From: a virus
Lineage: Duplodnaviria; Caudoviricetes
DNA length: 64,000 nucleotides
Strand: one strand, 5' to 3'
IMG/VR virus record: IMGVR_UViG_3300033463_000011
Span: 64,001 to 128,000 of that record
The notes below the pieces were generated by a model. It worked only from the letters and a program-made list of their open reading frames with translations, had not been told where the DNA came from and did no database searches. The position numbers and the translations under genes were made by a program. Positions 29,372 to 30,299 of the stretch are shown piece by piece. Numbering within the stretch: position 1 is the stretch's first letter; each line of letters starts with the position of its first letter.

Positions 29372-30299
29372 ATGTTTACACCATTAGCAATGGGTTGAGT
29401 TTGTGCCCTCGACATTAAGTAATTAGTGTCGGCTACCGCGTTAATTGCTCTGAATCCTTAAAGCCTGTATGCTACAACGTAATCTGAAAAGATAAGCGTG
29501 ATAGAGCGAAAGCAGAAAAAAGTTACAGGATGACCCAAGGTGAAATAAACGCATAGAGATATGTCCTAAAGGTTATTACCAGTTGGTCTTCAGCAGCCAC
29601 TTCGCTAAACTTAATACAGCAAGCGAAAGGTCCATCGATTATCTCCTTGAGGGAGAGTAGAACTCGAAGCAAATGCGAGAAGAAAAATGCGGCTCCTAGC
29701 AATAGGATGAAGATATAATCACAACTTCTGATGAAAATCAGAGATTACAGCGTTGCGACCTGTAGATAAGACAAAGTACAAATCATATGTTAGGCGTAGA
29801 TTCATATGTCCCTCTGTATAAAAACAACTTCGAAATCCGTATATACAACATGGACGGATCCAGCCCTGCAGAATTTTCTGATACACTTACACTCTCTACA
29901 GACGAAGTAGGCGCTATCGAAGAAAATCAAGATGTAATTACAGTACACTATGGTAACGGTTTAATCAAGTTCCCTCAGAAAGTTGATTACGGTGATGTTA
30001 ACTGGACACTTAACTGCTATACAACACCTAATGTACTTGAAGCATTAAGAGCTTGGAGAAGACAGATTTACAATCCGTTGACAGAGACACTTGGATTGCC
30101 TTCGCAGTACATGAGACAAATTTACTTTATAAGATACGATGGTACTGGCGGACAAGCAAGAGACATAATTAAGTGTCCTGGCGCTTGGATACGAAATCTC
30201 AATAACGGCGATATGTCACAAGAAGGCGGCCTTGTCAAGGTAACTTGCTCCTTCGTAATTTCTAGAGCAATTTATCTCAAGCCAGAAGATATCCAGTAA
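29372..30299 (+). CDS. Tail tube protein, intron-split (exons 29372-29395 and 29778-30299; 181 aa)
   Basis: AAGGAG RBS before ATG 29372. Spliced product starts MFTPLAMGTNHMLGVDSYVP and contains NNFEI, IKFP and AWRRQIYNP, a gp19-like tube pattern. Confidence 0.75.
29396..29777 (+). ncRNA. Group I intron (IA2-like), no internal ORF
   Basis: P1 GGGU/GCCC with a U.G pair; P3 CCGCGUU(29436)/AAUGCGG(29686); P-like AAUUGC; Q-like UCAGCAG; P7 GAUUA(29637)/UAAUC(29716); P7.1, P7.2, P8 (GCAA loop) and P9 hairpins. Confidence 0.88.

Follow-up and report, generated by a model that had tools for sequence, protein, structure and literature searches.

The U.G pair at position -1 is near-universal in group I introns, but it is not absolute, and group B IStrons also lack it (PMC4227781). 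Group B (IS607) IStrons insert after GG and have the U.G pair shifted by one; for BcISt1, splicing after G was established by RT-PCR and circle junctions (PMC4227781). Guanosine-dependent self-splicing has been shown for BcISt1 and CboIStron (PMC4227781; PMC13521648). The study by Tourasse (2014) left the mechanism of G-site choice open and found no separate copies (PMC4227781). An IA2 intron of Turicibacter at a GG-ending site is related to group B IStrons (PMC4227781), and introns in tail-tube genes have a precedent in Twort orf142 (PMC11878797).

The intron considered here lies in a 64,000-nucleotide stretch of DNA (the window), which belongs to a 200,233-base phage record. Judged from its sequence and that of its relatives, it is very probably a functional intron, ORF-less and IA2-like, from a lineage in which the 5' splice site lies one base upstream of the U.G pair.

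Gene Context and Reading Frame

The features of the locus are listed in Table 1. Read without splicing, the frame of ATG 29372 comprises eight codons and an immediate stop. The ORF from 29787 (170 aa) matched the tail-tube family phrog_4542 in PHROG (E 2.4e-14), and the match of an intron-less homologue to the tail-tube profile starts at residue 6 and spans the junction; the Pfam search matched no family to the tube protein. The first codons run without interruption in 24 of the 31 related loci (M-F-x-P-L-x-x-G-T-N-H-M), and intron-less alleles read MGTNH at the junction, as the preliminary description had predicted.

The coordinates and frame arithmetic of that description held on recomputation. 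The ends G29394/G29776 and U29395/U29777 lead to one identical 181-residue protein, which starts with MFTPLAMGTNHMLG as in intron-less alleles. Using both canonical sites, with U29395 joined to the base after G29776, gives the wrong frame, as had been claimed, and a 22-residue frameshifted product. Another candidate 3' end, G29770, had been described as out of frame; this is correct with a cut after U29395, but with a cut after G29394 the product is in frame and gains two residues (183 aa). An assembly error behind the frame puzzle was ruled out, as 13 distinct alleles have the same intron ends.

Table 1. Coordinates of the tail-tube gene, its intron, and the structural elements of the ribozyme
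Feature	Coordinates	Strand	Remarks
Ribosome-binding site, tail-tube gene	29355..29360	+	AAGGAG 11 nt before ATG 29372; similar in intron-less alleles
Exon 1	29372..29394	+	Codons 1-7 and two bases of Gly8; last base G29394 (predicted)
Group I intron, IA2-like	29395..29776	+	382 nt, no ORF; first base U29395, last base omega-G29776 (predicted)
Internal guide	29399..29408	+	Pairs with ligated exons
P2 hairpin	29410..29431	+	GUAA tetraloop 29419-29422; C29406 is 12 nt before the loop
P3, 5' strand	29436..29442	+	Pairs with 29686-29692
P4, 5' strand, and altered J4/5	29445..29457	+	Served as search pattern, conservation by construction
Altered J5/4 and P4, 3' strand	29585..29596	+	J5/4 without tandem adenosines
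P7, 5' strand	29635..29641	+	G-binding G29637; pairs with 29716-29721
P7.1 hairpin	29642..29656	+	A P7.2-like element, drawn by eye only, comes next and extends to about 29679
P8 hairpin	29694..29707	+	Site of a homing endonuclease gene in many relatives
P9 and P9.1	29727..29764	+	P9 29727-29742 with GAAA loop; P9.1 29746-29764
Exon 2	29777..30299	+	Third base of Gly8 to stop; 181-aa tail-tube protein once spliced

Intron Structure

The 29395-29776 element belongs to the group I introns and has IA2 features but departs from the U.G rule; the genome has a single copy. The Rfam search placed RF00028 at 29387-29743 with 28.9 bits (E 2.6e-5), short of the gathering score (50), at which nothing was detected in the window or the genome. 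The IA2 hallmarks P7.1, P9.1, and a GNRA-capped P2 are present and co-vary, and the IA2 tandem adenosines (the wobble receptor) are absent from J4/5-J5/4. Across 12 same-site alleles, compensatory changes were found in P2, P3, P7, P7.1, P8, P9, and P9.1 (P6 was not counted). In P2, 108/108 cells were paired, with double changes in 8/9 pairs; the corresponding values were 81/84 and 4/7 for P3 and 72/72 and 3/6 for P7, and 54/60 cells were paired in P9.1, also with double changes. The G-binding pair G29637-C29720, located after the C29636 bulge, is invariant in 12/12 alleles. The intron ends in ...AAAG, 12 nt past P9.1; attempts to place P9.0 gave no consistent assignment. The earlier proposals of a complete IA2-like core after codon 8, of a guide that pairs with the ligated exons, and of an intact G-C pair in the P7 G-binding site are thus borne out, the core by helices that co-vary in the alleles and by the sub-threshold RF00028 match.

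In P1, C29406-C29408 pair with G29392-G29394, and the predicted splice-site pair is G29394-C29406. Position -1 is therefore a G in a Watson-Crick pair, and the U.G wobble is found at +1 instead. G29405 pairs first with U29395 and then, in P10, with U29777. At the place in the J4/5-J5/4 region where canonical introns form a pair, this intron has C.C and most relatives have U.U, and J5/4 of the family carries U and C/G in the positions of the canonical AA. A folding program also paired exon 1 (29385-29388) with J2/3 (29432-29435), closing P1 and P2 in a junction; this pairing looks not conserved in other alleles.

Family of Related Introns

Relatives were gathered from viral and metagenome contigs with a P4-strand (P4-J4/5) pattern; a first core pattern returned mostly chance matches in coding DNA. 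Because of the P4-J4/5 pattern, introns with a G-C site and a canonical J4/5 could have escaped. The family comprises 124 distinct 5' ends. In 47 introns, structure allowed both ends to be placed, omega-G falling 23-27 nt away from where the P9.1 loop motif starts. Seven whose ends looked doubtful were left out, omega was set by hand in two, and the 40 introns analyzed occupy 10 or more insertion sites. A long ORF is present in 16 relatives with both ends placed, and the three tested matched homing endonucleases in PHROG, so the family probably spreads by ordinary homing, with the 29395-29776 copy as an ORF-less member. In one gene, family introns are inserted at two positions within a single G run, separated by 2 nt: L097, L149, and L170 at one, and L058:3556, L048, and L117 at the other. 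Both positions have G at -1.

Guide positions were counted back from the GNRA loop of P2, the guide being outside both search patterns. C is found at position 13 in 121/124 introns of the family, the three exceptions having poor P2 calls, and position 14 is G in 111, A in 6, and U in 7. In the control phage introns with canonical P4, G occupies position 13 in 30/31, usually facing the last U of the exon, and position 14 is random; L230 and the second intron of L221 are exceptions to the spacing rule among canonical introns. Since one spacing marks the splice-site pair in the family and in the controls, it would mark G29394-C29406 here.

Splice Boundaries

Three registers give the same mRNA for the 29395-29776 copy, so its boundaries rest on relatives. 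At the tube-gene site, 13 distinct intron-bearing alleles of several divergent types (370-442 nt) were found, all with GG/U...G/Y ends. The base after omega-G is U in 10 and C in 3 of them (L042, L106, and L181); it is the free third position of a Gly codon, and both U and C pair with G29405 in P10. The base before omega-G is A or U (A7/U5 in the 12 aligned alleles). G29776 itself is invariant in 12/12 aligned alleles and its downstream neighbor varies, which indicates that G29776 acts as omega-G and the neighbor as exon. Omega-G is followed by U24/C14/A1/G1 in the 40 family introns, and in 36/40 the product with both cuts after G is colinear with intron-less homologues. The cut after G was favored in 12/12 informative cases (5 sites at which the registers differ in residue). 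Four of these sites are strong (e.g., Ala in 21/21 homologues versus Val), and one is weak, with G10/T2/A1 and no V in the homologues. In L116, the alternative register with the cut after U yields a stop codon, and L095 has A-U at +1 and zero wobble in P1. The suggestion of non-canonical splice-site selection is supported by these relatives and narrowed to the 5' side: a cut after G29394, a canonical omega-G29776, and a full-length tube protein are the very likely outcome.

The preliminary description had also raised a regulated switch, in which in-frame and +1 products compete and tune the output of tube protein. The U.G pair beside the site in P1 and the second G (29770) as an alternative 3' end make mis-splicing products possible, but the identical geometry recurs at no fewer than 10 unrelated sites as well as in IStrons at random genes, CboIStron has one precise boundary in 98% of reads (PMC13521648), and a search for a conserved regulatory element found none. 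A switch is accordingly unsupported and very unlikely.

Canonical cleavage at the U.G pair, after U29395, with a terminal U29777 replacing omega-G, is extremely unlikely. It would produce the identical mRNA from this copy, and U29395.G29405 is invariant in the 12 same-site alleles. However, relatives have any of U, C, A, or G at the would-be terminal position, which thus behaves as part of the exon, and this contradicts the earlier option; the register gives wrong residues or a stop in all informative cases, the G-binding pair is intact, and guide position 14 is not always G. A shift of both ends one base upstream, with a cut before G29394, an intron ending in A29775, and exon 2 starting at G29776, would yield an identical product and even an identical full-length circle junction, as both flanking bases are always G. 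This reading is exceedingly improbable: the terminal base would be a random A or U despite the canonical G site in P7, and the P2 spacing indicates C29406 rather than C29407. Finally, a dead intron or one spliced out of frame, with the tube protein made from ATG 29787, where the 170-aa ORF begins, is hardly credible, given that this ATG has no ribosome site and a strong one precedes 29372, that the first 11 residues are shared by all intron-less alleles and by the 13 intron-bearing ones, whose exon 1 shows synonymous changes, that the helices co-vary, and that most relatives lie mid-gene, where a restart is impossible.

Proposed Choice of the 5' Splice Site

The P1-P2 length acts as a ruler through docking of L2 on P8. 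In the proposed first step, P1 would stack on P2, and the GNRA loop of P2 would dock on P8; the spacing would thereby bring G29394-C29406, which lies 12 nt ahead of the loop, into the active site, and free guanosine would cut between G29394 and U29395. The rebuilt J4/5, with pyrimidine-pyrimidine pairs replacing the tandem adenosines, may accommodate the Watson-Crick pair. In the second step, omega-G29776 would occupy the ordinary P7 site, P10 would keep exon 2 on the guide, and ligation of G29394 to U29777 would restore the message for the full 181-aa tube protein.

In the Tetrahymena ribozyme, A207 reads the amine of the wobble G, and Watson-Crick pairs at -1 cut docking about 100-fold (PMC13692252), a point that weighs against the proposed choice of site. 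C13 and the altered J4/5 co-occur in the family. The count of 184 family cores with U and G/C at the J5/4 adenosine positions, preceded by U.U pairs, is partly circular, since the search used the 5' strand as its pattern and likeness served to locate the 3' strand; the loss of the adenosines is plain in the alignments regardless. In the subgroup of the 29395-29776 intron, both bases of U.U have changed to give C.C, and the register of P4 is fixed by a change from U-A to G-C.

Neighboring Genes

The tube gene is directly followed by a 690-aa ORF (30403-32475, +) with HNH-family and DNA-methylase matches and a faint match to DUF7487, a domain that also occurs in intron-encoded endonucleases of the family. 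This ORF might be a free-standing endonuclease able to mobilize the ORF-less intron. The only TnpB of the genome (IS605 OrfB; 45386-46519, +) is a stand-alone gene 15.6 kb off with no adjoining group I ribozyme. Two adjacent BspA-type leucine-rich-repeat proteins are encoded at 40406-43387 (+).

Origin and Novelty

The best plasmid match of the intron was the IS607 IStron of Selenomonas, and the IStron of phage c-st also matched; both have the altered J4/5 and C13 of the 29395-29776 intron. C13 was found in 28/28 IS-linked cores, and position 14 of these cores is A as often as G. In the ribozyme-core trees, IS-linked and stand-alone phage cores interleave. The grouping of IS-linked cores as one clade was rejected (AU p 0.0023). 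A single origin of the shifted-site lineage was not recovered with firm support once the trait columns were masked (51/92). We consider the chances even that these introns represent a distinct, widespread phage subgroup with a rebuilt docking site that chooses G(-1)-C and needs no wobble, that spreads with homing endonucleases, and that has supplied the ribozyme of IS607 IStrons on more than one occasion, owing to the use of GG sites by both elements. On metagenome contigs, fusions of family ribozymes to IS607/TnpB genes were also seen (L113, L135, L141, L169, and L197). In L113 and L169, the P1 loops are short and guide position 14 is U, and both cluster with phage introns; these two fusions are perhaps a separate capture.

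The shifted splice site as such has a published precedent in group B IStrons (PMC4227781). A search of the literature, covering few subscription journals, turned up no report of such stand-alone phage introns or of the rebuilt docking site. One current database excludes the shifted-site family by design. The part without precedent in the papers searched is the large stand-alone phage family, with homing endonucleases in many members and an apparently rebuilt docking site. For the question of G-site choice left by Tourasse (2014), the family offers over 100 natural variants and a specific testable answer, the fixed P2 spacing combined with the rebuilt J4/5. The compact 382-nt ORF-free member suits structure work. 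In addition, the family suggests that the IStron ribozyme has free-living kin and warns that annotation rules expecting U/...G/ ends misplace the boundaries in such phage genes by one base.

Comparison with Known Introns and IStrons

The canonical phage IA2 introns (Twort orf142, the Silviavirus homologues including L221, and the T4 td type) share the core fold, the GNRA loop of P2, and omega-G with the 29395-29776 intron, and Twort orf142 and the Silviavirus homologues also share the host gene class, tail tube. Sequence similarity is weak (about 72% over 110 nt). In contrast to the present intron, their exon 1 ends with U paired to G, usually at guide position 13, and the J5/4 adenosines are mostly kept. 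Several further introns were noted in tube genes. L030:1557-1977 is a canonical U.G group I intron with an ordinary J4/5 at a third site of the tube gene and is a useful partner for swap experiments. The tail-tube gene of Staphylococcus phage LSA2308 (L221:1109-2150) contains three unannotated canonical introns, the second of which has its wobble G at guide position 14. L004, L005, and L042 carry an ORF-less group II-like intron (GUGCG start and domain V motif) after codon 20 of the tube gene; in L042, this intron and the group I intron both lie within the first 20 codons.

Some group I introns have C.G or C.A 5' sites. Such sites resemble the present one in having no U at -1, but they keep a wobble-like pyrimidine pair, whereas here a purine stands at -1 and forms a Watson-Crick pair with the guide C. 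C exceptions are mentioned in PMC4227781. The Turicibacter intron, compared by its published description, is likewise stand-alone at a GG-ending site; it differs in being reported from two bacterial strains only, and its paper contains no splice-site, J4/5, or phage-family analysis (PMC4227781).

The closest likeness is to group B IStrons (BcISt1, SrISt1, and CbISt/CboIStron; PMC4227781, PMC10690162, PMC13521648). Common to both are an IA2-like core with an extended P5, P7.1, and P9.1; insertion after GG, with U usually the first intron base and the U.G pair one pair off the cut; and C at guide position 13 with the same altered J4/5. SrISt1 is about 75% identical to the present intron over the aligned pieces. 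The intron differs in that the IS607 transposase and TnpB are absent, as are the left-end insert of the P1 loop, the CGG right end, and the AU-rich IR stem; its P1 loop measures about 10 nt versus mostly 50-77 nt in IS-linked cores. Its omega-G directly follows P9.1, and P10 is formed with the 3' exon. It occupies a fixed phage-gene site in a single copy, with relatives at the same site in other phages, and in many relatives P8 contains a homing endonuclease instead. By these comparisons, the 29395-29776 intron, which is inserted after GG and predicted to splice after G, would work like a group B IStron ribozyme, but it is not an IStron, because it has no transposase or TnpB and no IS ends and is present in one copy.
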